From positions 1-51,587 of the forward strand of contig CAZRWC010000001.1 of NCBI GenBank assembly GCA_964603705.1: 51,587 nt of DNA, written 5' to 3'. Made by a program: the position numbers and the translations under genes. Positions 4,851 to 46,451 of this stretch are shown piece by piece. The stretch comes from an uncultured Acholeplasmataceae bacterium (GTDB lineage Bacteria > Bacillota_I > Bacilli_A > Acholeplasmatales > Acholeplasmataceae). The stretch's first letter is position 1; every line of letters begins with the position of its first letter. The notes below the pieces were generated by a model, which saw nothing but the letters and a program-made list of their open reading frames with translations, searched no databases and was not told where the DNA came from.

Positions 4851-6778
4851 TTGTCCCAGTTAAGAAAACATCTTTAATTATTTTTAAAGAAGATAAAAGA
4901 AAAACTTTAAGAACACTTCAAAAATACGGTTTGATGATGATCGATAATGTTGAAAAACAACAAAAAATCGATACTTCTTATGAAGATAACCTTTATCAAA
5001 GAACTTCTAAGGCAATAAATTATCTTAAAGATTTTAAGCAAAAATCAAAAGCTTTTGGTTATCAAGAAGTTACATATGAAGATTTTCTTACTAGTTATGA
5101 TTCAAGAATTCAATTATTAGAAGAAGTTGAAGCGATTGATTTAAAATTATCTAGTTTAAAAGTTGAAAACGAAAAAATTGCTCAAGACTTAATTGTCTTA
5201 GAGCCTTTTAGAGATTTATCGATTGAAACCAAAGCCGCTAGTATGACAAACTACTCAAAAATTAAATATGGTTTTATTATCGAAAGTAAATTAGAAGAGT
5301 TAAAAAACTATTTTGAAAATAACAATTTAATTTATGAAATATTAAAAGCAGGCGAAGCAGGTATTGCAATTTCTTATGCATATTTACTAGAAGACGAAAT
5401 TAAAACCAATGAAGATTTGGCCTCAATCGGTTTAAAAGAAACCGAATTACCGCTATCTGATTTAAAATTTAAAGATTTTTTAATTTCGAAAGTCGAAGAA
5501 AATGTTTCAAATTTAAAAGAAGAGAGCGAATTAAAAGAAAGACTTTATACCTTGGCAAATCAAGTAGGGGAATTAAGGATTTTGGCAGATCAAATGTTAA
5601 CTATTAAAGAAGAAAAATTAGTTACCTTTGAAGAAACTTCACAATCAATTATTTTAACAGGTTGGGTTAGAACAGATCAAACCGAAGACTTCAAAAAGGC
5701 CTTAACAAAGGCAAATGTTGATTATGAGGTTGAGTTTAGAGATCCTTTAGAAACGGAAACGCCGCCGACAGCTTATAAAAACAACAAATTTGTTCAACCA
5801 TTTGAAACTATTACAAATATGTTCTCACCACCAGATGCTAGAGAATTAGATCCAAACCCGTTGATGAGTATTTGGTTTTGGCTAATCTTTGGAATTATGA
5901 TGGGTGATATTGGTTATGGTTTAATACTATTAATTGGTGCTTTTGTATTTTTAAAGGTGAAAAAACCCAAAGGATCAACTAGAAGTATGTTTGTTGTTTT
6001 TGGACTATCAGGAATAACATCAATAGTTGCTGGTATCGCGTTTGATAGTTTCTTTGGCTATGATATATTAAATAGGATGGGATTAAATATTGCTCTTACA
6101 AACCCAATCGAGCAACCAATTCAACTTTTAATATTTTCACTTTTAATTGGTGTTTTACACATTATTTCAGGATTGATAATGAAAATAGTTCTATCCTTAA
6201 AACGAAAGGATGTTTTATCCGCCTTAGCAGATGGTTTTAGTTGGATATTTGTTTTATCAGGATTATTATTTGCCTTTTGGAAACCCGTTTTAGAAATATT
6301 AGGAGTAACAGTTGGTTATCAAGGTCAAGGAGTACAAATATTAGCTATTATAGGTTATGTATTTTTAATAATCGGGGCGTTATTAATTTTAATATTAAGT
6401 GGCCGCGAACAAAAAAACATCTTTAAAAAAGTAACTTCAGGATTAGGCGGTATATACGGTATTACGGGATATTTATCTGACATTCTAAGTTACTCAAGAA
6501 TATTAGCTTTATCACTTTCTACTGCAGTAATTGCTTTTGCTATGAATACACTAGCAGAAATGGTAAGTGGCGGATTTGGATGGATATTTGCAATTATTAT
6601 TTATATTATTGGACATGTATTTAATTTTGCAATGGGGCTATTAAGTGCATATGTACATGATTCAAGACTACAATATATTGAATTTTACGGAAAATTTTAT
6701 GAAGGAAATGGATATTTATTCGATCCATTTGTATTACAAATCAAACACGTTAATGAAGTAACTAATAAAGACTTATAA
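4847..6778 (+). CDS. ntpI: V-type ATPase subunit I (membrane a-subunit)
   Basis: 643 aa with a soluble coiled N-terminal half and a C-terminal half of about 7 TM helices. The C-terminus carries the conserved SYSRILALSLS and HDSRLQYIEFYGKFYEGNG motifs typical of V/A-type subunit I. Confidence 0.85.
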   Translation: MIVPVKKTSLIIFKEDKRKTLRTLQKYGLMMIDNVEKQQKIDTSYEDNLYQRTSKAINYLKDFKQKSKAFGYQEVTYEDFLTSYDSRIQLLEEVEAIDLKLSSLKVENEKIAQDLIVLEPFRDLSIETKAASMTNYSKIKYGFIIESKLEELKNYFENNNLIYEILKAGEAGIAISYAYLLEDEIKTNEDLASIGLKETELPLSDLKFKDFLISKVEENVSNLKEESELKERLYTLANQVGELRILADQMLTIKEEKLVTFEETSQSIILTGWVRTDQTEDFKKALTKANVDYEVEFRDPLETETPPTAYKNNKFVQPFETITNMFSPPDARELDPNPLMSIWFWLIFGIMMGDIGYGLILLIGAFVFLKVKKPKGSTRSMFVVFGLSGITSIVAGIAFDSFFGYDILNRMGLNIALTNPIEQPIQLLIFSLLIGVLHIISGLIMKIVLSLKRKDVLSALADGFSWIFVLSGLLFAFWKPVLEILGVTVGYQGQGVQILAIIGYVFLIIGALLILILSGREQKNIFKKVTSGLGGIYGITGYLSDILSYSRILALSLSTAVIAFAMNTLAEMVSGGFGWIFAIIIYIIGHVFNFAMGLLSAYVHDSRLQYIEFYGKFYEGNGYLFDPFVLQIKHVNEVTNKDL

Positions 6779-7281: not shown

Positions 7282-7905
7282 ATGAAACCAGAAACTATTT
7301 ACGAAAAAATCGTTAATAAGGGTCAAGAAAAAGCCAATTTAATCAACGAAGAGGCTTTAACAGAAGCACAAATAGTTTCCGATAAAATAGTTAACAACGC
7401 ACAAAAAGAGGCCGATAAGATATTAAGAGATGCCAGAATAAGGGCGGAATCAATTGTTGGTCAAAAGAAAAACTCACTTGAGTTAGAAAAAAGGCAAGCG
7501 AGTTTAAGAGCACAACAAGCAATTATTGAAGAAGTTTTTGAAAATGTTTGGAAAACTATTCAAGCTTATGAGGGAAAAAAACTATTAGACTTTGCTGTTT
7601 CATTGATAAAACAAGAAAACTTGCTTGGCAATGAAACTATTGCAGTTAATAAATCGGAATACGATAAATACTTAAAAGCTTTTTCAACTAATAAAAAAGC
7701 TAATCTAGTTGAACTTAATCTATTAAATGCATCATTAAACGACCCTAAATATCAACTAAAATTAACAAATCAACCAGCAAAAATTAAGGATGGTTTTTTA
7801 GTGATAGGTAAATACTTTGATTTAAACTTTAGTTTTATTTATTTAGTTTTAAATTTACAAAAGAAATATGAAAAGGAACTACTTGATTTAATTTTTAAGG
7901 ATTAG
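7282..7905 (+). CDS. ntpE: V-type ATPase subunit E
   Basis: About 207 aa counted from ATG 7282, with GGAG upstream. The N-terminus is a long charged helix and the C-terminus is globular, and it sits fourth in the ntp-like order. The listed ORF start at 7249 overlaps ntpK and lacks an SD. Confidence 0.7.
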   Translation: MKPETIYEKIVNKGQEKANLINEEALTEAQIVSDKIVNNAQKEADKILRDARIRAESIVGQKKNSLELEKRQASLRAQQAIIEEVFENVWKTIQAYEGKKLLDFAVSLIKQENLLGNETIAVNKSEYDKYLKAFSTNKKANLVELNLLNASLNDPKYQLKLTNQPAKIKDGFLVIGKYFDLNFSFIYLVLNLQKKYEKELLDLIFKD

Positions 7906-9179: not shown

Positions 9180-10954
9180 TGATGATGAAAAAAGAAAAAA
9201 TAGGAACCGTAGTTAAGGTTTCTGGGCCGCTTATAGTAGCCTCTGGAATGGAGTCTGCTCAAGTATATGACGTTGTTAGAGTAAGTGAAAAACGTTTAAT
9301 CGGTGAAATTATAGAACTAAGAAACGATTTAGCCTCAATCCAAGTTTATGAAGAAACAGCTGGGATTGGACCTGGTGAACCAGTATACTTTACCGATCTA
9401 CCATTATCAGTTGAACTAGGACCGGGTTTAATCGAAGGTATTTTTGATGGTATTCAACGTCCGCTTAATAAAATATATGACAAAGCTGGTTCAAGAATAC
9501 CACTTGGAATTGATTTACCAAAACTTAGCAGAGAGAAAAAGTGGAATTTTAAAGCTAGTGTAAAATTAGGTGATAAAGTAATTGGTGGCGATATTATTGG
9601 CGAAGTAATTGAAACAAATGTTGTCAACCATAAGATTATGGTACCACCACTTCTTCATGGAACTATTAAAAAAATTAATGACTTTAATGATATAACAATC
9701 GATCAAGTTGTTTGCGTATTAGCAACCGACAATGGCGATATTGATTTAACTTTAGTCCAATCATGGCCGGTTAGAATTAAAAGACCATATAAAACTAAAA
9801 TTGCTCCCAAAGATTCAATGGTAACAGGTCAAAGGGTAATTGACACTTTGTTTCCAATTGCATCTGGCGGAATTGCTGCTATTCCCGGGCCTTTTGGTTC
9901 AGGAAAAACTGTTGTTCAACAACAACTAGCTAAATGGGCAGATGCAGATATAATTGTTTATGTTGGCTGTGGTGAACGCGGTAATGAAATGACCGATGTA
10001 TTAATGGAATTTCCTAAATTACACGATCCAAAGACCGGTGAGTCTTTAATGAAACGTACAGTCTTAATCGCTAATACTTCAAATATGCCAGTTGCTGCTA
10101 GAGAAGCTTCTATTTATACAGGAATTACAATTGCAGAATATTTTAGGGATATGGGCTACAAAGTAGCAATTATGGCTGATTCAACTTCACGATGGGCAGA
10201 AGCTTTAAGAGAAATGAGTTCAAGATTAGAAGAAATGCCTGGCGAAGAAGGCTATCCAGCTTATTTAAGTTCTAGGATTGCTAGTTTTTATGAAAGAGCA
10301 GGCTTAGTGAATTGTTGTGGTAGTGACGAACGTCAAGGAGCAATAACCGCAATTGGCGCTGTTTCACCTCCTGGAGGCGATACTTCTGAACCAGTTTCAC
10401 AAGCAACTTTAAGAATTGTTAAAGTTTTCTGGGGTTTAAGTGCCTCACTAGCTTATAGTCGTCATTTTCCCGCAATTGATTGGTTAAAGAGTTATTCTTT
10501 ATATGCCGATGATTTATTTTCTAGTTTTAATAAAAATATTAATCGTAATTGGCAAATTCAAGTTTTGGAAACACAATCAATTTTAAATGAAGAAGCTGAC
10601 TTGCAAGAAATTGTTCGTTTAGTAGGAATTGATTCATTAGGAGCTAGTGATCGTCTAAAACTAAAAGTTTCACAATTAATTCGCGAAGACTTTCTTCATC
10701 AAAACGCCTTTGATGAAGTTGATACTTATACTTCACTTGATAAACAATATTTAATGTTAAATCTAATTTTATCTTGGTATCATCAAGCAAAAGATGTGCT
10801 AAGCTTAGGTATTAGATTTAAGGAAATAGATGAAATGAAAATTTTAGAGAAAATAGGGCGCGTTAAATATGTCCCTGAAAATCAAATTATTAGTCATTAC
10901 AATCAATTATTTAACGAAATGACTGAAGAATTTCTATCGCTAACAAAGGAGTAA
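9179..10954 (+). CDS. ntpA: V-type ATPase catalytic subunit A
   Basis: 591 aa with Walker [21 protein letters not shown], the Walker B-like [17 protein letters not shown], and the non-homologous insert typical of A subunits. Confidence 0.97.
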
Positions 10955-10958
10955 TAAT

Positions 10959-12326
10959 ATGGCAATTAAAGAATATAAAACAATTAAAGAAGTTGTCGGG
11001 CCATTGATGTTAGTCGAAAATGTTTTAGGTGTAAAATACGATGAATTAGTCGAAGTAAGACAAGCAAGTGGCGAAATACGATTAGGGAAAGTTCTAGAAG
11101 CTTATGATGATAAGGCTTTAGTGCAATTATTTGAATCTAGTCAAGGTTTAAAAATCGAAGATTCAAAAGCTGTTTTTCTAGGTCACGGAATTGAAATTGG
11201 ATTATCACCTGATATTTTAGGACGTGTTTTTGATGGAATGGGTCGACCAATTGACCAAGCTGGTGCTTTAATACCAGAAAAATCATTAGATATTAATGGT
11301 TCTCCTATCAATCCGGTTGCAAGAAATTATCCTGAAGAATTTATTCAGACGGGAGTAAGTGCGATTGATGGATTAAATACACTAGTTCGTGGTCAAAAAT
11401 TACCGATTTTCTCTGGCTCCGGATTACCCCATGCCAAACTTGCAGCTCAAATTGCCAGACAAGCGAATGTTATTGGAACGGCTGATAAATTTGCGGTTGT
11501 TTTTGCTGCAATAGGTATTACATTTGAAGAAGCTAATTACTTTATTGAAGACTTTAAAAGAACGGGAGCGATATCTAGAACTGTCTTATTTGTTAACCTA
11601 GCAAATGACCCAGCAATTGAAAGAATCGCTACTCCTAGAATGGCGATTACAACTGCTGAATACTTAGCATATGAATTAAACATGCATGTTTTGGTTATCT
11701 TAACTGACCTTACTAATTATGCTGAAGCCTTAAGAGAAGTTTCGGCAGCACGTAAAGAAGTTCCAGGACGTCGCGGCTATCCTGGTTATATGTATACTGA
11801 TTTAGCCAGTTTATATGAAAGAGCTGGAAGAATTAAAGGTTCTAGAGGTTCCATTACGCAAATTCCTATTTTAACAATGCCAGAAGATGATAAAACCCAC
11901 CCAATTCCCGACTTAACCGGCTATATTACTGAAGGTCAAATCATTTTAGGAAGAGACTTATATCAAAAAGGCTTAACTCCTCCAATCGATGTTTTACCAT
12001 CCTTATCAAGGTTAAAAGACAAAGGAATTGGCGAAGATAAAACTAGAGAAGACCATGCTGATACAATGAATCAACTATTTGCTGCTTATGCAAGAGGTAA
12101 AGACGCAAAAGAACTATCAACTATTTTAGGTGATTCGGCATTATCTGAATTAGATAAACTATACGCTGATTTTGCTGATCAATTTGAAAGAAGATATGTT
12201 TCACAAGGTTATGAAACTAACCGAAGTATCGAAGAAACTTTAGACTTAGGTTGGGAATTATTAAGAATCTTACCTAAATCAGAATTAAAAAGAATTAATT
12301 TAAAACTAATTGATAAATATTATTAA
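10959..12326 (+). CDS. ntpB: V-type ATPase subunit B
   Basis: 455 aa with [51 protein letters not shown], and ITEGQI. Confidence 0.97.
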
Positions 12327-12340
12327 TAAAAAGGAGTATC

Positions 12341-12982
12341 ATGGCTAGAGGTCAAATTAATCCAACCAGAATGGAATTAATAAAACTAAAAAACCGCTTA
12401 GCAACAACTACTCGTGGTCATAAGTTATTAAAAGATAAACAAGATGAAATGATTCGTCATTTCATGGAAGTTATTAAAAGTAACATGGCTTTGCGACAAG
12501 AAGTTGAAGAAAAGCTTTCTTTAGTCATGAAAAAATATAATGACTCACAAATCCATTGTTCAATCGATCAAATGTATGAGTATTTGAGTGTTCCAAGTCA
12601 ACAAGTCGATTTAAAATTAAGAGTCGATTCGATTATGAACTTGGAAACACCAATGATTTTAATGAAAGAAAATGCTTCAAAAATTAGATTGAATTACAGT
12701 CTAATAAATTCTCCGGCCCTATTAGATGAAACAGTTTTAGAATTTGGTAAATTATTACCTTTAATTATAAAATTGGCTGAACTAGATAAAAAAACCGATA
12801 TGTTAGCAAAAGAAATTGAAAAAACTAGAAGACGAGTTAACGCAATCGAATACGTGATGTTACCAGAACTTGAAGCAAATATAAAACGAATTCAAATGAA
12901 GCTTGATGATGATGAAAGAAGCAACACAGTTCGTTTAATGAAATCTAAAGAAATGATTATTAAAAAAGAGTTAAAGGATTGA
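12341..12982 (+). CDS. ntpD: V-type ATPase central-stalk subunit D
   Basis: 213 aa with INPTRMELIKLKNRL...TRGHKLLKDKQDE at the N-terminus and TRRRVNAIEYVMLPEL at the C-terminus, both subunit D hallmarks. Confidence 0.9.
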   Translation: MARGQINPTRMELIKLKNRLATTTRGHKLLKDKQDEMIRHFMEVIKSNMALRQEVEEKLSLVMKKYNDSQIHCSIDQMYEYLSVPSQQVDLKLRVDSIMNLETPMILMKENASKIRLNYSLINSPALLDETVLEFGKLLPLIIKLAELDKKTDMLAKEIEKTRRRVNAIEYVMLPELEANIKRIQMKLDDDERSNTVRLMKSKEMIIKKELKD

Positions 12983-12986
12983 TAAA

Positions 12987-13502
12987 GTGGCTTCCATTAG
13001 ACAAAATAAACAAAAAAATATAAATGATATTGTATTGGGATCACTATCTATTATAGCGGGTATTATTACATTAATCTTAAGTTTAATTGATCTGGCATTA
13101 GTTTTGTGGGCGATTGGGACATTTTTCGGAATTTATTTTTTAATCGCTGGAATAATGATGATTATCTCTTATACCAAAAGTAAGATACCATTAAATTTAA
13201 TTTTTGGGGCACTAAGAGTTTTCTTAGGGGTAGTCTTTATAATTCAGCCCCATGAAGCCCTTGGTTATATCGCATTTCTAATTGGCTTTTGGGCAATAAT
13301 TGAAGGAATAAAAAACTTATCGAATTTGCCGGCAAGAAATACCCAAAAAATTATTCCAATTATCATAAGTGTAATGCTCATCGCAATTGGAGTTTTAGTA
13401 ATTATTAATCAGTTTAAAATTATTTTATTATTAGGAATTTTAGTTTCATTGATTTTGATTTTTAATGGAATTAAGCAAATTATAAAAATATTTAGATATT
13501 AA
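12987..13502 (+). CDS. Small polytopic membrane protein, HdeD/DUF308-like
   Basis: 171 aa with a GTG start 4 nt after ntpD and about six TM helices. It shows the repeated pattern ...G(I/F)xxIxxG... and the FIIQPHEALGYIAFLIGFWAIIEGI segment reminiscent of DUF308. The family call comes from pattern only. Confidence 0.5.
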   Translation: MASIRQNKQKNINDIVLGSLSIIAGIITLILSLIDLALVLWAIGTFFGIYFLIAGIMMIISYTKSKIPLNLIFGALRVFLGVVFIIQPHEALGYIAFLIGFWAIIEGIKNLSNLPARNTQKIIPIIISVMLIAIGVLVIINQFKIILLLGILVSLILIFNGIKQIIKIFRY

Positions 13503-38118: not shown

Positions 38119-39366
38119 TTAGATTTTTTTAACTCTAATTAATTTTAGTTTTGCAAATCTTGGTAAACCATCCTCAAGGCTCGCTTTATCATCACCTTGA
38201 ATAAGCGGCCTAGCATAGTCGATGAATTCTTGAGTCATTCCTAGATTATTTGGTTTTATCCAATTTTTTGGAACGGTCTGTTCGGTATTGGCGACTTTTT
38301 CTAAAGGTATTAAAATATAATTTATCTTATAAGGGTTGTTGGAAACTCTTTTAAAAGCAACCATTTTATCAGTAGCTCCTTTAATAGCTTCTCTAACGGC
38401 TTTTTTACCAGCGTTAAAAGCTTCTCGAACATCAACTTTACTTGCTAAGTGAGCAGCACATCTTTGCATCAAGGAAAACTCTATTGCTCTAACTTTTACA
38501 CCAAATTGTTTTTTTACTTGTTCGGCTAAAATTTGGGCTGTTCCGCCTAACTGAGCGTGACCGAAAGCATCTTTATGCATATCGGTAAAGTGTTCTGGAA
38601 TATATTTACCTTCAGCATCTTTTACGCCTTCAGAAACAGCAATAATGGCTTTTCCTTTGCTATCAATCAAGTTTTTTACTGATTTAAAAAACTTATCATA
38701 ATCAAAAACTTCTTCAGGTAAATAAAGTAAATCAGGTCCTTGACCTTCCGCCATTGCAAGTGCACCAGCGGCTGTTAGCCAACCAGCATTTCTTCCCATG
38801 ATTTCAACAATTGTAACTTGCGGTGTATCATAAACAGTTGCATCGTGATATAACTCCATCAAAGTAGTAGCAACATATTTAGCAGCACTACCATAGCCTG
38901 GACAGTGGTCAGTTATATTTAAATCATTATCAATTGTTTTAGGAACACCAATAACGTTACAATCCCAATTACTGTCATGTAAAAACTTACTAATTTTATT
39001 GGCAGTATCCATTGAATCGTTTCCGCCGTTATAAAAGAAGTAACGAATATTATATTTTTTAAAAACTTCAACAATTCGTTTATAATCAGTATCATCAACA
39101 GCTGGATCTTTTAGTTTATAACGAACGCTTCCAATCATAGAAGCAGGAGTGTTTTTTAAGCGTTCTAACTCGGTTAAATCTTCTTTTCCAATATCATAAA
39201 ATTCTTCGTTTAAAACACCTTTAATTCCATGAACAGCACCATATACACCAGTTATTAGTTCTGGGTGTTTTAAAGCTTCTAAAAATACACCTGCAGCACT
39301 AGCATTTATAACACTTGTTGGTCCGCCTGATTGCCCTAGTAAGGCAACACCTTTTAAATTTTTCAT
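38119..39366 (-). CDS. pfp: Pyrophosphate-dependent 6-phosphofructokinase (PPi-PFK)
   Basis: About 415 aa from ATG 39366 (MKNLKGVALLGQSGGPTSVINA). It belongs to the PFK family and carries GGNDS (Asp at the position equivalent to E. coli PfkA Gly104) and VPKTIDNDL (Lys at the position of Gly124). Those two residues are the classical discriminators of PPi-dependent enzymes. Confidence 0.85.
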   Translation of the reverse strand: MKNLKGVALLGQSGGPTSVINASAAGVFLEALKHPELITGVYGAVHGIKGVLNEEFYDIGKEDLTELERLKNTPASMIGSVRYKLKDPAVDDTDYKRIVEVFKKYNIRYFFYNGGNDSMDTANKISKFLHDSNWDCNVIGVPKTIDNDLNITDHCPGYGSAAKYVATTLMELYHDATVYDTPQVTIVEIMGRNAGWLTAAGALAMAEGQGPDLLYLPEEVFDYDKFFKSVKNLIDSKGKAIIAVSEGVKDAEGKYIPEHFTDMHKDAFGHAQLGGTAQILAEQVKKQFGVKVRAIEFSLMQRCAAHLASKVDVREAFNAGKKAVREAIKGATDKMVAFKRVSNNPYKINYILIPLEKVANTEQTVPKNWIKPNNLGMTQEFIDYARPLIQGDDKASLEDGLPRFAKLKLIRVKKI

Positions 39367-39466
39367 CTCATCATTCCTTTCAATCAATAATAATTTTAAC
39401 ATAAAATAGTTTAAACTAAAAATATATTAGATATAAGTAATTATTTTTATATTTAATCTTTAAATA

Positions 39467-39497: not shown

Positions 39498-40448
39498 ATG
39501 AGAATAGGTGTATTAACATCGGGCGGAGATGCTCCAGGCATGAACGCCGCTATTAGAGCAGTTGTTAGAACGGCTTTATATTACGGACATGACGTATATG
39601 GAATTAAAAATGGCTATCGTGGTTTAATTGAAAACGACATGGTTTTATTATTGCATGATGATGTTTCTGGTGGTTTAACAAAAGGTGGAACTTTTTTAGG
39701 TACAGCTAGAGTTGAAAACTTTCAGGAACAAGATATAAGAGAAATTGCTTATCGTAATTTACAAAAAAGAAAAATCAATGCTTTAATTGTAATTGGTGGT
39801 GACGGTTCTTATCGCGGTGCAATGGCTTTAGCAGAAATGGGTGTTAAGGTGGTTTGTATACCTGGCACAATCGATAATGATCTAGGTGGAACCGATAAAA
39901 CAATCGGTTTTAATACCGCTTTAAATACAATTGTAGAAGCGATAGATAAATTAAGGGATACATCAAGTTCTCATCAACGTTGTTCAATCATTGAAACAAT
40001 GGGTAGAAAAGCAGGCGATTTAGCGCTATATTCAGGTCTTTGTAGTGGAGCGGAATTTATCATTACTAATGACCACCCAGTTGATAAAAATTATTTAATT
40101 AATACTCTATCTGCTTGGCAAAAAGAAGGAAGAAGACAAGCTATCATCGTCGTTACCGAACATATGTTTGATGTATATGAATTAGCGAAAGAAATAAGTG
40201 AAAAATCTGGATTTTCAACCAGAGCTACTGTTTTAGGCTATATCCAAAGAGGCGGCACACCGGTTCCTGAAGATCGTATTTTAGCGACACAATTAGGCTC
40301 ATATGCAGTAACTTTAGTTAATGAAGGAATCTATGGTGTTGGTGTGGGAATTAGAAATAATAAATTAGTTCATAATAATTTAGAAGATATATTAAATGAT
40401 TTAGAACAACACCTTGACTTATATGATTTAATTTCCAAAGTATCATAA
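39498..40448 (+). CDS. pfkA: ATP-dependent 6-phosphofructokinase
   Basis: 316 aa with MRIGVLTSGGDAPGMNAAIRAVVR, IGGDGSYRGA (Gly104 type), IPGTIDNDL (Gly124 type), ETMGR and LGYIQRGG. Confidence 0.95.
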   Translation: MRIGVLTSGGDAPGMNAAIRAVVRTALYYGHDVYGIKNGYRGLIENDMVLLLHDDVSGGLTKGGTFLGTARVENFQEQDIREIAYRNLQKRKINALIVIGGDGSYRGAMALAEMGVKVVCIPGTIDNDLGGTDKTIGFNTALNTIVEAIDKLRDTSSSHQRCSIIETMGRKAGDLALYSGLCSGAEFIITNDHPVDKNYLINTLSAWQKEGRRQAIIVVTEHMFDVYELAKEISEKSGFSTRATVLGYIQRGGTPVPEDRILATQLGSYAVTLVNEGIYGVGVGIRNNKLVHNNLEDILNDLEQHLDLYDLISKVS

Positions 40449-40530
40449 TTATTTCTTTCAAAGCTATGTTACAAGACCTTTAATTGTACATAGATAAACA
40501 ACAAAAAATACAAATTTTTTAAGATAATAC

Positions 40531-40562
40531 AAAGAACACTTGATTTTGAGTGTTCTTTTTTG
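40531..40562 (+). terminator. Intrinsic terminator after pfkA
   Basis: aaagaacact-tgattttg-agtgttcttt is a 10-bp stem followed by a T-run. Confidence 0.75.
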
Positions 40563-40726
40563 GAAATGCCGAAGCACCACCAAGAGTGTACTTGGTAATT
40601 ATAAGATTAATTGCACAGATGACACAAAAAAATTAAAAAGAGATAGCCAATAATGTATGTACACGCTCGTGTTGATAGTATTTTTAATATATCTTCATAT
40701 ATAACTCGTTATATCTTGATAATAGG

Positions 40727-40755
40727 TTGAGTTAATAGTTAAATAATGCTATAAT
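40727..40755 (+). promoter_or_regulatory. Putative promoter of the SPFH-TIR cassette
   Basis: TTGAGT (40727-40732), a 17-nt spacer ending in TG, and TATAAT (40750-40755) lie 70 nt upstream of the ATG at 40825. Confidence 0.4.
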
Positions 40756-40824
40756 TTTATTATAAAGTTATAGTGTTTTTTTATTTTTTATAAAAGTCTA
40801 AAAATTAATACGGAGGAAAAAATA

Positions 40825-41959
40825 ATGAGTAAAGTTTTTAGTGTTATCAAATATGAGGGGGCTAACGATACATTTGTATGGAAATCTCCAATAGAAAACT
40901 TTAACACTGGGTCACAGTTAATTGTTCATGAGTCGCAAGAAGCCTTGTTTTTTTTAATGGACAAGCATTAGACCTTTTTGGTCCAGGAAGATATACTTTA
41001 GAGACACAAAACATTCCGCTACTTAGAAAAGCATTAAATAGAGCAACAGGTGATGAAACACCTTATACTTGTTCTATTTATTTTATTAATAAGGTAGAGC
41101 AAATGGCAATTAAATGGGGAACAGATAGCCAAGTTCATTATATTGATCCAACCTATAATTTCCCTTTATCAATTGGTGCATCCGGTGAAATGTCAATTCG
41201 TGTTGAAGATTCTAGAAAACTGATTTTAAAGTTAGTTGGAACTGAAAGAAATTTAACACAAGATTCTTTAACAAGAAAAATAAGGGCTTTTTTAATGGTC
41301 AAAATGAAACCACTTTTAGCAAGAACGATGCTAAAAGGTGAGGTTAGTATATTCGCAATAGAAAGTCAAATCGATATCTTATCAGAAGTAATACACGCAT
41401 CATTGTTAAATGATTTTAATGATTATGGTTTAGAATTGGAAAGATTTTTTATAATAAATATAGCAAGGCCGATGGTGAACGTACATTTGAAAAATTCAAA
41501 GATTTATATTATAGACAATACGGTGATGTAGCAGAAGCAAAATTAAGACAAGAAATAGGGCTGATTGATGAAACTACAGCAGCAAGAAGAAGAGTAATAG
41601 AAGCTGAATCAATTGCTGCTAAAAGAACTCTAGAGGGTTATACTTATCAAGATGAAAGAGGTTTTGATGTCGCTGAAAAAGTTGCTGAGAATGAAGGCGT
41701 AGGAACTATGGCAAGTACTGGAATTGGATTAGGGCTTGCCGCAGGAGTAGGTGTTGGAGTAGGCGGTAAAGTTGCAGGAATTACATCTGATGCTCTTGGA
41801 GTAACTTCAGGTAGTCCACAACCACAACCAGCACCAATTGACCCATTGGAAGCATTTAAACAAAAAGTAGAAAAACTAAAAATAATGAAAGAATCTGGTC
41901 TTATATCAGATGAAGAATTTGCAAAATTAAAACAAGAACTTTTAGCAAAAATATTATAA
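40825..41959 (+). pseudogene. SPFH/Band-7 (YdjI-like) protein with C-terminal SHOCT domain, disrupted by two single-base frameshifts
   Basis: Three consecutive frames read as one protein. Fragment 1 is MSKVFSVIKYEGANDTFVWKSPIENFNTGSQLIVHESQEALFF, with a stop at 40969-40971. Fragment 2 is NGQALDLFGPGRYTLETQNIPLL...MAIKWGTDSQVHYIDP...GLELERFFI, with a stop at 41529-41531. Fragment 3 is SKADGERTFEKFKDLYYRQYGDVAEAKLRQE...EGYTYQDERGFDVAEKVAENEGVG, then a Gly-rich linker, then a SHOCT-like ESGLISDEEFAKLKQELLAKIL. The first shift maps to the T8 run at 40948-40955. The second maps to 41423-41464, which contains the T6 run at 41445-41450. SD ggagg precedes the ATG at 40825. Confidence 0.8.
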
Positions 41960-41972
41960 GGAGAACTAAGAC

Positions 41973-42650
41973 ATGAAAATTAATAAAAACAAAACATTAT
42001 ATTTTATTGTAATAGCATTGTTAATTGGATTATTTAATCTAATAGCATTTTTAATACCATTTCCAAAAAGTGTTAGTTTTTGGGTAGGGTATGGTTTTAT
42101 TACTTTATCGGCCTTAATAAGTGCAGTTGTTTTATATTTCATATTTGACAAAAAAGATATGAAAAGCCGTTTTTATGGTGTTCCTTTAATATATATATTA
42201 AGGAGTTATATTGTTTTACAATTTATTTTAGGAATAGTTCAAATGGCTGTGCCAGCTTTTACTTATACATATGCAATAGTAGTAAATGCAGTAATATTAG
42301 TTTTTACTATTGTTGGATTGATTGGATTAACTGCGGGTAAAGAAGAAATAGAAAGAGTCGATGAAAAAGTTCAACAAAAAGTATTATATATTCAAGAAAT
42401 TCGAGTAAAGCTTGAAAGCGTAATCGATAATACAAAAAATAAAGAAGTATTAAAAGAATTAAATAAGCTAAAGGATTTAGTTAGATATAGTGATCCAATG
42501 AGTAATGAAAAAGTTGAATCACTTGAAGAAAAAATATTACAAAATGTAAATTTATTATCATCTTTGAAAGATGATGAAAAACCAGTTAAAATAAAAGAGA
42601 TAACAAAACAAGTAAATGAAAGAAATAGGCTTGTTAAAATATATAAATAG
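41973..42650 (+). CDS. Unknown membrane protein: four TM helices plus a ~100-aa charged coiled-coil tail
   Basis: 225 aa with SD ggag 9 nt upstream, starting 13 nt after the SPFH stop. There are four hydrophobic segments in aa ~8-125, then KEEIERVDEKVQQKVLYIQEIRVKLESV...; no recognisable family motif. Confidence 0.7.
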   Translation: MKINKNKTLYFIVIALLIGLFNLIAFLIPFPKSVSFWVGYGFITLSALISAVVLYFIFDKKDMKSRFYGVPLIYILRSYIVLQFILGIVQMAVPAFTYTYAIVVNAVILVFTIVGLIGLTAGKEEIERVDEKVQQKVLYIQEIRVKLESVIDNTKNKEVLKELNKLKDLVRYSDPMSNEKVESLEEKILQNVNLLSSLKDDEKPVKIKEITKQVNERNRLVKIYK

Positions 42651-42659
42651 AGGGATAAT

Positions 42660-44003
42660 ATGGCAATATATAAGTGTAAAGTATGTGCTGGTTCATTAAA
42701 TGTAAAAGATGACCAAACAACAGTAACCTGTGAATATTGTGGCACACAACAAGCATTACCAAAGTCTAATACCGATTTGATTCTTAATTTATATGATAGA
42801 GCAAATCATTTTAGAAGAAATAATGAATTTGATAAAGCGGAAAAAGTTTATCAACAAATATTAATTGAAGACCCGAGTGATGCTGAAGCCTACTGGTCTT
42901 TAGTTTTGTGTAATTATGGTATTGAATATGTAGAAGACCCTAAAACCAGAAAAAGAATACCAACAGTAAATAGAGCCCAATTCACTTCAATATTTAATGA
43001 TGAGAACTATAAAAAAGCATTAGAATATGGCGATGGTTATCAAAAAGACATTTTTGAATCGGAAGCAAAAGTTATTAATGAAATCCAAAAAGGGATTTTA
43101 TCGGTTTCTCAAAAAGAAGATCCGTATGACGTCTTTATTAGTTATAAAGAAACTGATGAACAAGGCAGAAGAACTAGAGATTCTGTTTTAGCTAACGACT
43201 TGTATCATCAACTGACTAAAGAAGGATTTAAAGTGTTCTTTTCAAGAATTACTTTAGAGTCAAAGCTAGGTATGGAATATGAACCATATATATTTGCGGC
43301 ATTAAATAGCGCGAAAGTTATGGTAGTATTAGGAACAAAGCGAGAATATTTTAATGCTGTTTGGGTGAAAAATGAATGGAGTAGGTTTTTAGCTGTAGTT
43401 AGGGATTCAAAAGGTGAAAAAATATTAATACCAGCATATAGAGATATGGATCCATATGACTTGCCGGAAGAATTTAGTCATTTACAATCTCAAGATATGA
43501 GTAAATTAGGATTTATGCAAGATTTAATTAGAGGAATTGAAAAAATAATTCCTAATTTGAAAAAAAATAAAAAAGATAACTCAAATAATAAAGATGACGA
43601 TTTAATGCTTAATGAATTTTACAAATCTGCTAATAATTATTTGAAAAAAAATAAAATTAAAAATGCAGTTATGATAAGAAATAAAATGTTATCCATCAAT
43701 CCAAATACGTCATATTTGTTTTTGTTAGATGAACATATAAATTTTCATATAGAAAAGTCAAAAGAGTTATTTAGGGATATTTTAAATTATGTATATAGGA
43801 CGCAATCATTGAGTATAAATTCTATACAAAACGAGTTTGATTTGGGTTTTGATGAGGTTGCTTTAATTATTCAAGATATGGAACAAGCTAGTATTATTAC
43901 TCCTAATTTGGGTGTAAAAGCAAGAAAAATAACATATTTGTATAGCATTGAAGAAATAGATAAGATGGTTGATATTTTAATTTCAAACAAAATAAAAGTT
44001 TGA
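42660..44003 (+). CDS. Zn-ribbon / TPR-like / TIR-domain protein with C-terminal FtsK-gamma-like winged helix
   Basis: 447 aa with SD agaggg, starting 9 nt after the previous stop. The N-terminus has CKVC...x16...CEYC (a zinc ribbon), then FDKAEKVYQQILIEDPSDAEAYWSLVLCNYGIEYVED (TPR-like). The TIR core is YDVFISYKETDEQGRRTRDSVLANDLYHQLTKEGFKVFFSRITLE...YEPYIFAALNSAKVMVVLGT...AVWVKNEWSRFL (about aa 155-290, candidate catalytic Glu239 at 43374-43376). A Lys/Asn-rich linker follows. The C-terminus ELFRDILNYVYRTQSLSINSIQNEFDLGFDEVALIIQDMEQASIITP aligns by eye with the E. coli FtsK gamma domain ([45 protein letters not shown]). Confidence 0.85.
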   Translation: MAIYKCKVCAGSLNVKDDQTTVTCEYCGTQQALPKSNTDLILNLYDRANHFRRNNEFDKAEKVYQQILIEDPSDAEAYWSLVLCNYGIEYVEDPKTRKRIPTVNRAQFTSIFNDENYKKALEYGDGYQKDIFESEAKVINEIQKGILSVSQKEDPYDVFISYKETDEQGRRTRDSVLANDLYHQLTKEGFKVFFSRITLESKLGMEYEPYIFAALNSAKVMVVLGTKREYFNAVWVKNEWSRFLAVVRDSKGEKILIPAYRDMDPYDLPEEFSHLQSQDMSKLGFMQDLIRGIEKIIPNLKKNKKDNSNNKDDDLMLNEFYKSANNYLKKNKIKNAVMIRNKMLSINPNTSYLFLLDEHINFHIEKSKELFRDILNYVYRTQSLSINSIQNEFDLGFDEVALIIQDMEQASIITPNLGVKARKITYLYSIEEIDKMVDILISNKIKV

Positions 44004-44218
44004 TGATTATTAAATATAGAATAATAAATCAAAAACAAGAGTACAGGTGTATAGATAAAAGGTCTTAATAAGATTTTAAGTCATAAAAAGAGCTATTTAA
44101 AATATTTGAAAAGATTTTTCTTTCTTTATTTGAATTATATTGTTAGCCAATATACTTAAAGATTTGCATAATGAAAATATTACTAGTGGTAGCAAGATAA
44201 ATTAATTGAAGTTCGATG

Positions 44219-44261
44219 TATAAATGATTAAATAAGACCCATTCTTATTTAATCATTTATA
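44219..44261. repeat. Perfect 19-bp inverted repeat (hairpin with a 5-nt loop) in the non-coding right flank of the cassette
   Basis: tataaatgattaaataaga-cccat-tcttatttaatcatttata, with all 19 pairs Watson-Crick and no T-run after it. Confidence 0.85.
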
Positions 44262-44501
44262 ATACTAATTAACTATAAACAAGTTAAACTTATTACTTGT
44301 TAAAGGCTGTATTCAATGATAAAATCATTATGAATAAAGAATGAAAAATTTAGCTATATATTTAAACAATAATATTAGATGCATTTTGTCGTTTTTGTTA
44401 ACCAATGAAAAATATTAATATGTTTCAAAGGCGAAAATAAAAAAAGCTGAATACTTTTAATAGTTGCATGTATTAGTTCTGCTATGAAAGTAGAGTGTTT
44501 T

Positions 44502-46451
44502 ATGTTTGAATTAGTAACAAGTTATAAGCCAAGTGGTGATCAACCACAGGCAATAGAAAACTTAATCAATAATATCAATAACGGTATTAAAGAACAAGTC
44601 TTACTTGGTGCAACCGGCACAGGCAAGACTTTTACGATTGCCAATATTATTCAAAAACTAGGTAAAAAAACTTTAGTCTTAGCACCTAATAAAACCTTAG
44701 CTGGACAATTATATGGCGAATTAAAAACACTTTTTCCAAATAATCGAGTCGAATACTTTATTTCATATTATGATTATTATCAACCAGAAGCTTATGTTGT
44801 CTCTAGTGACACCTATATAGAAAAAGATGCTAGTATCAATGACGAAATAGATGAGTTTCGTCATAGTGCAACCGCCTCGTTATTATCAAATGACGATGTT
44901 ATAGTGGTTGCTAGTGTTTCTTGTATTTATGGTATCGGAGATATCGAAGATTACAAAAATTCAACGATTTTTCTAAGGGTTGGAGAAGAATATAGTCGCA
45001 GCAATTTAATTAATAAATTAGTCGAATTAACATATGAAAGAAATGATTTTGATTTTAAACGCGGAAGTTTTAGAGTTAGAGGAGATTTAGTTGATGTTGT
45101 TCCAATTTCTCAACATGATCAAGGGATAAGAATCCAATTTTTTGGTGATGAAATTGAAGAAATATTTAAGTTTGATATTGTAACCGGAAAAATGATTGAA
45201 AAGACTTCATTTGTAACTGTTTTTCCAGCTACGCACTTCGTTACCAATCCTGAAAAACTAGCTATAGCAATCGAAAGAATTAGAGAAGAGTTAGAAGATA
45301 GAATCAAATACTTTAAGGAAAAAGATTTATTGCTTGAAGCCCAAAGGATTGAATTAAGAACTAGGTATGACCTAGAGATGTTAGAAGAAATCGGTTTTAC
45401 TAGTGGAGTTGAAAATTATTCTAGACACCTAGCCTTAAAAGCCGAAAATGAAACACCTACTACCTTAATGGATTTTTTTGGCGATGACTATCTATTAATT
45501 ATTGATGAATCACATGTAACAATTCCTCAAGTCAAGGGAATGTATCGTGGTGATAGGTCTAGAAAAGAAACTTTAGTCAACTTTGGTTTTAGATTACCAA
45601 GTGCGCTTGATAATCGACCACTAAGGTTTGATGAGTTTGAAGAAAAAGTTGATAAAGTAATTTATTTATCGGCTACCCCAGGACCATATGAATTAGAAAA
45701 AAATATTCCAATCATTGAACAAATTATCCGTCCAACCTTTTTAATTGATCCTGAAGTTATCGTAAGACCAGCTTATGGTCAAATAGATGATTTATATTTT
45801 GAAATTAAAAAAAGAATCAATCATAACGAAAGAGTCTTAGTTACAACCCTAACAATTAAAATGAGCGAAGATTTAACGGCTCATTTTAAAGAAATGGGAT
45901 TAAAGGTAGCATATCTTCATAGTGAAATTAAATCGCTTGAAAGAATTGTTATTTTAAATGATTTAAGAAAAGGTAAATATGATGTTTTAGTCGGAATCAA
46001 TCTTTTAAGAGAAGGACTAGATTTACCAGAAGTAAGTCTAGTGGCGATTTTAGATGCCGATAAACAAGGCTTTTTAAGAAGCGAAAGAAGTTTAATTCAA
46101 ACTATCGGTCGCGCTGCTAGAAACATTAACGGTCAAGTAATAATGTATGCTAATTCAATTAGTGAATCGATGGAAAAAGCCATCAATGAAACTAACAGAA
46201 GACGTGAGATTCAACAAATATATAATCAAACAAATAATTTAAAACCATTAAGTATTACTAAAGAGATTAGAGAAGTTATTTCGCTAACGAGCTTGATAGA
46301 AGAAAAGAGCGAATTAACTTCATTTACCAAAGAAGATTTGAAAAAACAAATTAAAATTATTGAAAAAGAAATGCTAGCAGCAGCTAAAAACTATGAATTT
46401 GAAAAAGCCGCCGAGTTAAGAGATATTCTATTCGAATTAAAAGCGCTATAA
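44502..46451 (+). CDS. uvrB: Excinuclease ABC subunit B
   Basis: From ATG 44502 it reads [21 protein letters not shown], the canonical UvrB N-terminus. It has Walker [15 protein letters not shown], the beta-hairpin region [16 protein letters not shown] and a C-terminal UVR motif ([10 protein letters not shown]). Confidence 0.95.

Follow-up and report, generated by a model that had tools for sequence, protein, structure and literature searches.

Introduction

The TIR domain is a signalling or killing module common to animal, plant and bacterial immunity. Here we analyse a cassette of three genes, encoding an SPFH protein, a protein with four transmembrane (TM) helices (the 4-TM protein) and a TIR protein, which lies between pfkA and uvrB in a 51,587-nt stretch of DNA from an uncultured Acholeplasmataceae bacterium (assembly GCA_964603705.1, contig CAZRWC010000001.1, positions 1 to 51,587; this whole stretch is called the window). 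In Bacillus subtilis, the SPFH protein YdjI of the PspA-YdjG-YdjH-YdjI system (SamGHI) is soluble and its localisation to the membrane needs YdjG and YdjH (PMC8581546; bioRxiv 10.64898/2026.02.06.704340). YdjG is described as consisting of two Zn ribbons, an NTF2-like domain and a TM segment (PMC11237479); the 'Tir' named in the abstract of that paper is the CesT/Tir chaperone, which is unrelated to the TIR domain. TIR-bearing targets of diversity-generating retroelements (DGRs) have been described for the STAND and ternary systems of multicellular bacteria (PMC7159879, PMC10907252, PMC7517822). Cellular DGR targets are described as being, for the most part, proteins anchored in the membrane that bind extracellular substrates (PMC8144416), and in receptor-binding proteins of phages DUF6273 is known to be targeted by DGRs (PMC10743442).

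Comparison of the cassette with homologous loci leads us to consider it, with a probability of about 0.6, as a horizontally acquired, derived and partly decayed copy of a family of membrane TIR operons of the defence or conflict type found chiefly in gut and rumen Clostridia and also in Treponema.

Results

The cassette encodes SPFH, 4-TM and TIR proteins

A sequence-only reading of the window had proposed, at this place, a TIR-based defence or membrane-stress module made of three co-directional genes with short spacers and a Shine-Dalgarno motif each. The coordinates (40825-44003) bear out this layout. The genes, all on the + strand, are the SPFH (Band_7_1) and SHOCT gene at 40825-41959, recognised by reading across frames and now a pseudogene, and two open reading frames (ORFs), one for the 4-TM protein of 225 aa (41973-42650) and one for a 447-aa protein with a Zn ribbon, TPR-like helices, a TIR domain and a winged helix (42660-44003). 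The spacers within the cassette are 13 nt and then 9 nt long, and one purine-rich, Shine-Dalgarno-like site precedes each gene, at 40812 (GGAGG), 41958 (AAGGAG) and 42650 (GAGGG). The SPFH, SHOCT, TIR and FtsK_gamma assignments made by eye were all recovered as profile matches above cut-off, and the Zn ribbon is supported by its conserved cysteines. The reconstructed SPFH product, 378 aa read across two frame changes, matched Band_7_1 (6.9e-39, 134 bits for a cut-off of 24) and SHOCT (1.6e-6, 28.1 bits for a cut-off of 27); a search of PDB sequences with the SPFH protein gave no match.

The 447-aa protein begins with the Zn ribbon (residues 1-35; 42660-42764, +), whose cysteines C6, C9, C24 and C27 are invariant or nearly so in 95 homologues and which forms four short strands in the AlphaFold2 (AF2) model (pLDDT 84-92; mean pLDDT of the entire model 76). 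TPR-like helices follow at residues 44-86 (42789-42917, +); they matched TPR_16 (1.5e-5) and TPR_14 (3e-4), both under the gathering cut-offs, were modelled with a pLDDT above 90 and belong to a strongly conserved N-terminal module. The TIR domain (residues 158-282; 43131-43505, +) matched TIR_2 at 5.5e-13, with 49.9 bits for a cut-off of 28. Glu239 (codon 43374-43376, +) lies in a W-V-x-N-E-W motif and had been put forward as the catalytic residue; consistent with this position, W235, V236, N238, E239 and W240 are invariant across the 95 aligned homologues, Glu239 is at least 90% conserved among 57 database proteins, and the window protein retains all the residues that are invariant in the family. 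With Foldseek, the TIR part of the model was matched to the TIR domains of SARM1, Roq1, RUN1, TIR-STING and SPARTA with a probability of 1.0; the weakness of the E-values (1e-3 to 1e-1) reflects the use of the entire multi-domain model as query. A search of PDB sequences with the TIR profile returned TPR repeats only. By profile, glutamate and fold the domain is thus placed with the NAD-cleaving TIR domains, and it would be a candidate NAD+ hydrolase or cyclase. A short TPR-like stretch separates the TIR domain from an FtsK_gamma winged helix (residues 366-425; 43755-43934, +; 2.7e-11, 43.5 bits for a cut-off of 30.6), which is specific to this lineage.

The 225-aa protein has predicted TM helices at residues ~5-27, 32-57, 66-92 and 98-120, followed by a predicted cytoplasmic tail, helical or coiled-coil, that contains a RYSDPMS motif (42483-42503) invariant across the 4-TM family. 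No relative of it was found in Pfam, NCBIfam, PADLOC, PHROGs, PDB sequences or, by Foldseek, PDB folds; its single-sequence AF2 model had a pLDDT of 73 and gave only Foldseek matches with E > 1, none of them meaningful. Among 54 members of the 4-TM family there was no TPM domain and no other significant Pfam match.

The three genes form a conserved operon family

The 447-aa protein has at least 8000 relatives in the databases, counted as protein clusters. Their first ~300 residues are 60-82% identical to the window protein; among the listed matches the lengths range from 320 to 783 aa, with variable C-termini. Homologous loci (designated L with a number) were counted in the best 80 of at least 556 encoding stretches, with one genome per species, and therefore represent the most similar loci and not a random sample. 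Nearly all are from Clostridia of gut, rumen or digester samples. Of the 80, 58 contained an SPFH homologue and 57 a 4-TM homologue, in every case on the strand of the TIR gene, so that the co-localisation supposed from the window alone holds in other genomes. The usual gene order is SPFH, 4-TM, TIR, and the same order was seen in L093, L096, L099 and L100; the last two show that the core is also carried by the cultured Lacrimispora aerotolerans (L099) and by a termite-gut Treponema (L100). Ruminococcaceae bacterium YRB3002 (L050) and Anaerotignum sp. MSJ-24 (L076) are further carriers in culture with an intact operon. Several loci that appeared to have no SPFH or 4-TM gene end at a contig edge, but a few (L053, L074, L078) hold orphan TIR genes. 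TIR-receptor genes often occur in tandem (115 genes in the 80 loci), with two or three paralogues that differ in their outer domains.

When 880 flanking ORFs were clustered, a tyrosine recombinase was found in 14 loci and every other non-core family in at most 7, which indicates that the loci otherwise share no common surroundings. The core was found in only 2 of 2.9 million viral contigs, and the system is therefore not phage-borne. The contigs of the closest relatives of the cassette, with SPFH proteins 82-89% identical to that of the window, have a G+C content of ~28%. Three of them differ in the third gene. L093 carries SPFH and 4-TM (79% identical) genes and a 590-aa TIR protein whose C-terminus is a TM anchor, without an ectodomain. 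L096 carries SPFH and 4-TM genes, a 640-aa TIR protein and a 785-aa TIR-LRR_5 protein. L094 (SPFH 83% identical) carries SPFH and 4-TM genes and then a Zn-ribbon/DUF5050 protein with a C-terminal TM segment and no TIR domain (10837-13059). The third gene thus appears to be exchangeable, the Zn ribbon and the C-terminal membrane anchor being kept, and the L094 arrangement suggests that the SPFH/4-TM pair can join other Zn-ribbon membrane proteins. Combined, these comparisons indicate that the SPFH, 4-TM and TIR genes form a conserved and apparently unnamed operon family.

The typical TIR protein is a predicted membrane receptor with a variable outer domain

In 70 of 83 complete homologues a TM helix was predicted past residue 350, and the part that follows the helix has a median length of 274 residues. 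Lysines and arginines are concentrated before the helix (5.5, compared to 1.5 after it), and the Zn-ribbon/TPR/TIR/TPR part is accordingly predicted to be cytoplasmic and the C-terminus to lie outside. The ectodomains vary: DUF6273 was found in 52 of 90 homologues, RCC1-like propellers in 14 and BspA-type leucine-rich repeats (LRR_5) in 5, Listeria-Bacteroides repeats, LRR_8 and RHS being rarer. The membrane-proximal TPR region of full-length homologues (residues ~315-400; for example in L019, L044 and L055) is 25-30% identical to the N-terminal TPR region (42780-43034 in the window), which suggests that the two regions may have arisen by internal duplication.

In six loci a bAvd-like gene comes after the receptor gene, and then a repeat and a reverse-transcriptase gene; the last 120-160 nt of the receptor gene, which encode part of a DUF6273 ectodomain, constitute the variable copy of the repeat. 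The variable and template repeats are located at 10424-10550 and 11117-11243 in L014, 10312-10435 and 11026-11149 in L038, 10446-10570 and 11178-11302 in L054, 10422-10543 and 11129-11250 in L046, and 2676-2801 and 3383-3508 in L029; in L051 a single template (10853-11012) serves two receptor paralogues (variable repeats 6376-6535 and 10161-10316). Mismatches between the copies fall almost exclusively at template adenines (16/17, 18/20, 19/20, 18/21 and 21/21, and in L051 18/21 and 17/21). As read from the aligned repeats, this adenine-specific pattern is the signature of a DGR. In the window, neither a reverse transcriptase nor Avd nor a template/variable repeat pair was found.

Many homologous operons carry swappable effector genes and putative invertible segments

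The 4-TM gene is directly followed by the TIR gene in 23 loci, and an extra gene lies between them in 23 others. The products of the extra genes include small TIR proteins (PDC-S66, 8e-40; ThsB, 2e-23), DUF2971 (PDC-S31, 6e-27), HEPN proteins of several types, DUF4365 (restriction endonuclease-like, REase-like), DUF1413 and HTH proteins; examples are located at 2063-2488 in L015, 7277-7945 in L016, 7408-8001 in L046, 1999-2592 in L019 and 7486-8001 in L024. SIR2_2 genes are found 3' of the receptor gene in four loci, and 4090-5031 in L026 is a further example of a swappable extra or SIR2-type gene. Judged by these matches, the position between the 4-TM and TIR genes is a slot that holds a swappable effector gene.

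In 14 loci the tyrosine recombinase gene lies directly 5' of the operon, and a segment of 150-300 bp between the recombinase and SPFH genes is flanked on both sides by nearly perfect inverted repeats that share the core ACATAAT-N(2-8)-ATTATGT. Such a pair is found at 5308-5338 and 5592-5622 in L077, and pairs are also present in L014, L016, L024, L038, L040, L049, L051, L056, L058, L066, L068, L072 and L080. The segment looks like an invertible promoter, which would make expression of the operon phase-variable. No site of this type was found in the window. Serine recombinases, HepT/MNT and IS21 were seen as neighbours in individual homologous loci. In the Treponema locus (L100 1-15215) the operon stands amid NACHT/PRTase-CE, PNP_UDP_1-TPR, DUF2971 and DUF87 genes, in surroundings that look like a defence island, and in Lacrimispora aerotolerans (L099 1-10655) it adjoins a gene for a 2387-aa RHS/YD toxin.

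The cassette is inserted in a variable interval 5' of uvrB

The region around uvrB was compared in four relatives (L087, L088, L089 and L090). In L090 (UvrB 76% identical) pfkA directly adjoins uvrB and the interval is empty. In L087 and L088 (UvrB 94% identical) the interval contains a starch-utilisation operon of CBM26, ABC-transporter, alpha-amylase and LacI genes, with ~600 bp carrying an LRR_5 fragment at the place of the window cassette, and the genes 3' of uvrB are those found there in the window. In L089, genes of a type I restriction-modification system lie 5' of uvrB. Homology between the DNA of the window and of L087 extends over 40446-40528 and resumes from ~44485, and these two breaks delimit the variable slot; its left edge is the unstranded pfkA-proximal intergenic segment 40449-40528, which is 92% identical to L087 7300-7382. 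The comparison identifies the cassette as an insertion in the pfkA-uvrB interval, and the interval behaves in it as a variable slot for accessory genes, different in each relative examined. An insertion at this spot had been claimed by the sequence-only reading and is upheld by the empty interval of L090 and the other content of L087 and L088; nor is the cassette a core locus of all relatives, being absent from the pfkA-uvrB position in these three. The argument behind that claim, an interrupted pfkA-pyk neighbourhood as in Bacillus, was mistaken, since the relevant ancestral state is pfkA-uvrB in Acholeplasmataceae. The N-terminus of the window TIR protein is 75-82% identical to proteins of Clostridia, while UvrB is of Acholeplasmataceae type, and horizontal acquisition by the Acholeplasmataceae host would be the best explanation. 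A metagenome scan based on pfkA yielded one short identical contig and nothing more.

The LRR_5 fragment of L087 is a 65-aa ORF just 5' of uvrB (7659-7856). It could be the relic of a TIR-LRR_5 receptor like the second TIR gene of L096; its sole similarity is weak (40% over 40 aa, E = 0.05).

The window copy has a broken SPFH gene and a rebuilt TIR protein

A single nucleotide is missing from the SPFH gene at each of two places, after 40955 (at a T8 run) and after 41470, which disrupts the reading frame; the deletions were placed by DNA alignment to the intact SPFH genes of L093 and L096 (89% and 82% protein identity). The same breaks are found in L001, L002 and L003, which are assemblies of separate sequencing projects, and this excludes a sequencing error; assemblies of this type are 99.93-100% identical to the window and thus nearly clonal. 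The pseudogene has no stop codons other than those arising from the frameshifts. In a relative-rate test it had 10 lineage-specific amino-acid changes compared to 7 in its intact sister (p = 0.63), and without any surplus of such changes the inactivation looks recent. The five database proteins that are 82-89% identical to the reconstructed product are all intact. The same test gave 9 changes versus 4 for the 4-TM protein and 23 versus 24 for the N-terminus of the TIR protein, again no excess.

The window TIR protein tracks the family up to about residue 365 and diverges beyond it into the winged helix. FtsK_gamma was found in this protein only, 1 of 90 homologues, and the protein has neither a predicted TM helix nor an ectodomain. 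Its C-terminal 152 aa had no close relative among 1.84 billion representative proteins, the best match (E = 1.5e-8) covering only the winged helix-turn-helix (wHTH) region. The alignment indicates that the protein has swapped the TM helix and ectodomain for a predicted cytoplasmic winged helix of the FtsK-gamma type. The winged helix, first taken for a feature of the system, is therefore peculiar to one homologue, where it replaces the TPR/TM/ectodomain part carried by 70 of 83.

Flanking DNA and host

The non-coding gaps on either side of the cassette, 376 nt on the 5' side (40449-40824) and 480 nt on the 3' side (44004-44483), are the two longest of the window, as had been noted before; the accompanying statement that all others are under about 130 bp was a little inexact, the next-longest being 282, 177 and 176 nt. 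Besides the three cassette genes no additional gene was found from the pfkA terminator to uvrB. A TTGAGT-17-TATAAT promoter-like site with a TG extension is indeed present at 40727-40755 (+), as a consensus match only. It loses its weight as evidence on comparison with shuffled sequence: the cassette region has 30 promoter-like sites for a mean of 28.3 after shuffling, and by itself the motif is no proof. A hairpin followed by a T run at 40531-40564 (+; -15.1 kcal/mol, z-score -4.3) is probably the terminator of pfkA. An unstranded, A+T-rich, perfect hairpin with a 19-bp stem and a 5-nt loop (44219-44261; -19.3 kcal/mol, z-score -6.2) lies 216 nt past the TIR stop codon; it is the single such hairpin in the window and has no U tract after it. 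An Rfam search of the whole window gave no match. No trace of a lost TM segment, ectodomain, recombinase or DGR was found in 44004-44483 or in the 5' flank, and no flanking direct repeats, which would be a sign of att sites, were found around the cassette.

UvrB is 72-77% identical to the proteins of Acholeplasma and Haploplasma, placing the host within the Acholeplasmataceae; the G+C content of the window genome is 29%. The longest uvrB ORF opens at 44484, and the alignment of the relatives together with the length of the homologues (649-651 aa) favours the ATG at 44502 as the start. Upstream of the cassette lies a divergent pair of phosphofructokinase-family genes, 38119-39402 (-, 427 aa) and 39498-40448 (+, 316 aa), a pair also present in L090.

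Discussion

A defence or conflict system is the most likely reading of the operon family. The earlier alternative, a TIR-based defence or membrane-stress module, is thus narrowed by the conflict-system hallmarks of the family, with the qualification that the window copy is partly decayed and that defence would be the presumed purpose of the operons. Several points weigh on the other side. Between bacterial families the first 300 aa of the TIR protein share 75% identity, an unusually high conservation for a defence gene. The local copy, with its dead SPFH gene and a TIR protein that has neither TM helix nor ectodomain, may have no activity. Surface proteins diversified by DGRs are typical of adhesion too, and SPFH proteins of membrane housekeeping. 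The window TIR protein reached just 32.8 bits with ThcB4, for a cut-off of 220, and 29 bits with PDC-S66, and clostridial representatives of the three core proteins had no match in PADLOC-DB v2. Genes in the fetched loci were called by a longest-ORF rule and TM helices by a hydropathy threshold, and the simplicity of these rules has to be counted here as well.

If the family serves in defence, the TIR protein would act as a receptor in the membrane: its TIR domains would associate in response to a signal that arrives either at the membrane or at the variable outer domain, and the associated domains would cleave NAD+ or make a nucleotide signal by means of the invariant glutamate. Growth of the infected cell would then be stopped directly, or through the extra effector gene that many of the operons carry. 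The SPFH and 4-TM proteins may hold or restrain the receptor in a patch of membrane, by analogy with the recruitment of YdjI by YdjG and YdjH; it is equally possible that the 4-TM protein is a pore-type effector restrained by the SPFH protein. The window copy, if still active, would be a unit of two proteins: the 4-TM protein would serve as a pore or membrane anchor, and the TIR-wHTH protein may, by way of its winged helix, now take its sensing input from DNA.

Since the window copy is partly decayed, its activity is uncertain, and it may equally be such a two-gene variant with DNA input or a decaying one. A more radical possibility, which we regard as rather unlikely, is that it is a non-functional remnant heading for deletion, in which the receptor is truncated and the winged helix an accidental fusion. 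The two SPFH frameshifts fixed in every assembly seen would fit a remnant, as would the lack of the TM helix and ectodomain that 70/83 homologues possess, the winged helix, which none of the other homologues among the 90 shares and for which no close relative was found, the long, non-coding and A+T-rich flanks, and the closest relative (L087/L088), which has already lost the cassette or never had it. However, the frames of 225 and 447 codons are intact in a genome of 29% G+C, the TIR protein keeps every family-invariant residue, lineage-specific changes are not in excess in any of the three products, and promoter-like and Shine-Dalgarno motifs are retained; the FtsK_gamma match, being above its gathering cut-off, points to a real folded domain and also counts against a remnant. 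The intact frames, the conserved residues and the unaccelerated rate mildly favour a retained function of the window copy.

For the family as a whole, it is improbable that the operons constitute an envelope-stress or membrane-homeostasis module, a counterpart of SamGHI in which the SPFH protein and its membrane partners monitor the membrane and TIR is an interaction or regulatory domain. Both systems combine the same types of parts: a Band_7_1 SPFH protein that is soluble, a protein opening with a Zn ribbon, and a small membrane protein whose tail is helical. In addition, a mechanism has been described for YdjGHI (PMC8581546; bioRxiv 10.64898/2026.02.06.704340), the third-position protein of L094 has no TIR domain, and the N-terminal module is very strongly conserved. 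Yet no pspA recurs in the 80 loci, the 4-TM protein has no TPM domain, and the window genome tolerates the loss of SPFH. DGRs, swappable HEPN, TIR, DUF2971 and REase genes, tandem paralogues, unrelated flanks and recombinases are a better fit to a conflict system. There is similarly little to recommend a gut surface-sensing or adhesion receptor for host glycans or other cells, with binding tuned by DGRs and phase variation and TIR as the signalling output. It would account for ectodomains typical of surface binding proteins (C-type-lectin-like DUF6273, BspA LRR, RCC1, Listeria-Bacteroides repeats), for inverton-like repeats with a tyrosine recombinase, which are common for surface structures, and for the origin of the family almost exclusively in gut, rumen and digester samples; cellular DGR targets are moreover mostly membrane-anchored binders (PMC8144416). 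It would leave the toxin-type effector genes of the operons (HEPN, REase-like, SIR2, small ThsB-like TIR) to be explained, and the window variant and L093 keep the cytoplasmic module without an ectodomain. The invariance of the catalytic glutamate argues against both of these functions.

Returning to defence or conflict as the function of the family, a bolder proposal, which we put forward tentatively and hold to be possible but short of probable, is that the operons represent an undescribed and widespread class of membrane immune receptors, a functional counterpart of Toll-like receptors. It would have a cytoplasmic Zn-ribbon/TPR/TIR head for signalling, one TM helix, an exchangeable or DGR-diversified outer sensor, SPFH and 4-TM partners, often an invertible promoter, and swappable toxins, and the wall-less Acholeplasma lineage would have traded the sensor for a DNA-binding winged helix. 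For most of the known bacterial TIR systems considered here, by match or by review (Thoeris ThsB, TIR-STING, SPARTA and DGR targets of the STAND type), a cytoplasmic location is predicted; to set the TIR domain behind one TM helix would, if true, be a new bacterial coupling of surface or membrane events to NAD+-based responses, distinguished by a variable, sometimes retroelement-hypermutated outer domain, an SPFH scaffold partner and swappable toxin-type genes. SPFH proteins would then gain a role in immunity. Given its abundance in gut and rumen Clostridia, the family may shape phage-host dynamics in microbiomes. The window copy has a smaller value of its own: it documents a horizontal transfer into a Mollicutes-type genome and a variable slot 5' of uvrB, and, as a natural minimal variant without ectodomain or SPFH protein, it could help to show which parts are essential.

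Comparison with known systems

Searches of the window proteins against PADLOC-DB v2 (2023) and NCBIfam gave weak matches at the level of TIR only and no named system, in agreement with the earlier impression that the combination has no name as a defence system. No description of the gene combination was found in the open-access literature; PADLOC-DB v2 itself dates from 2023, and the combination may have been named since.

The cassette resembles SamGHI in its soluble SPFH protein, its protein starting with a Zn ribbon and its small membrane protein, whose tail is helical or of low complexity. Unlike SamGHI, it has no pspA gene (nor did any pspA family recur across the homologous loci), and its 4-TM protein shows no relation to YdjH, which has a TPM domain. 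Orthology with pspA-ydjGHI was rejected on these two grounds; of the likeness pointed out by the sequence-only reading, the analogy of part types is what remains. The third protein of the window continues from the Zn ribbon into TPR, TIR and wHTH regions, whereas YdjG is described without TPR or TIR. The SPFH protein has SHOCT at its C-terminus, and YdjI a Zn-finger motif close to its own; the likeness of the two is one of domain type. The DGR, effector-slot and mobility features of the homologous operons are not reported for ydjGHI.

With Thoeris ThsB, TIR-STING, SPARTA and PDC-S66 the cassette shares a TIR domain of the NAD-cleaving fold with a conserved catalytic glutamate, and small TIR genes similar to ThsB or PDC-S66 occur inside some of the homologous operons. 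Unlike Thoeris, TIR-STING and SPARTA, it has no ThsA, STING, Argonaute or CARF/SAVED partner, and SPFH and 4-TM partners are not known from any TIR system in PADLOC-DB v2. Membership of Thoeris was rejected, there being no ThsA (SIR2 or TM with SLOG or Macro), no PADLOC ThsB match and a ThcB4 score below its cut-off; membership of PDC-S66 was rejected because the match reached 29 bits only.

The DGR sensors of STAND and ternary systems have cytoplasmic STAND or MoxR-vWA NTPases, and no NTPase belongs to the SPFH/4-TM/TIR family. The family also differs in its predicted single-pass membrane receptor, in which the diversified domain lies outside, and in its unicellular gut anaerobic hosts; the window copy itself has no DGR or lectin domain. 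What the family shares with these sensors is that a C-type-lectin-like C-terminal domain of a TIR protein is the target of the DGR in six homologous loci.

Animal Toll-like receptors have the reverse order of domains, the TIR domain being N-terminal and the ectodomain C-terminal in the family described here, and have no counterpart of the extra Zn-ribbon/TPR module. The bacterial TIR domain is probably enzymatic and not an adaptor, no homology beyond the TIR fold is meant, and the window protein has no TM helix. In architecture only, the typical homologue is like a Toll-like receptor, with a variable, sometimes LRR, outer domain, one TM helix and a TIR domain inside.

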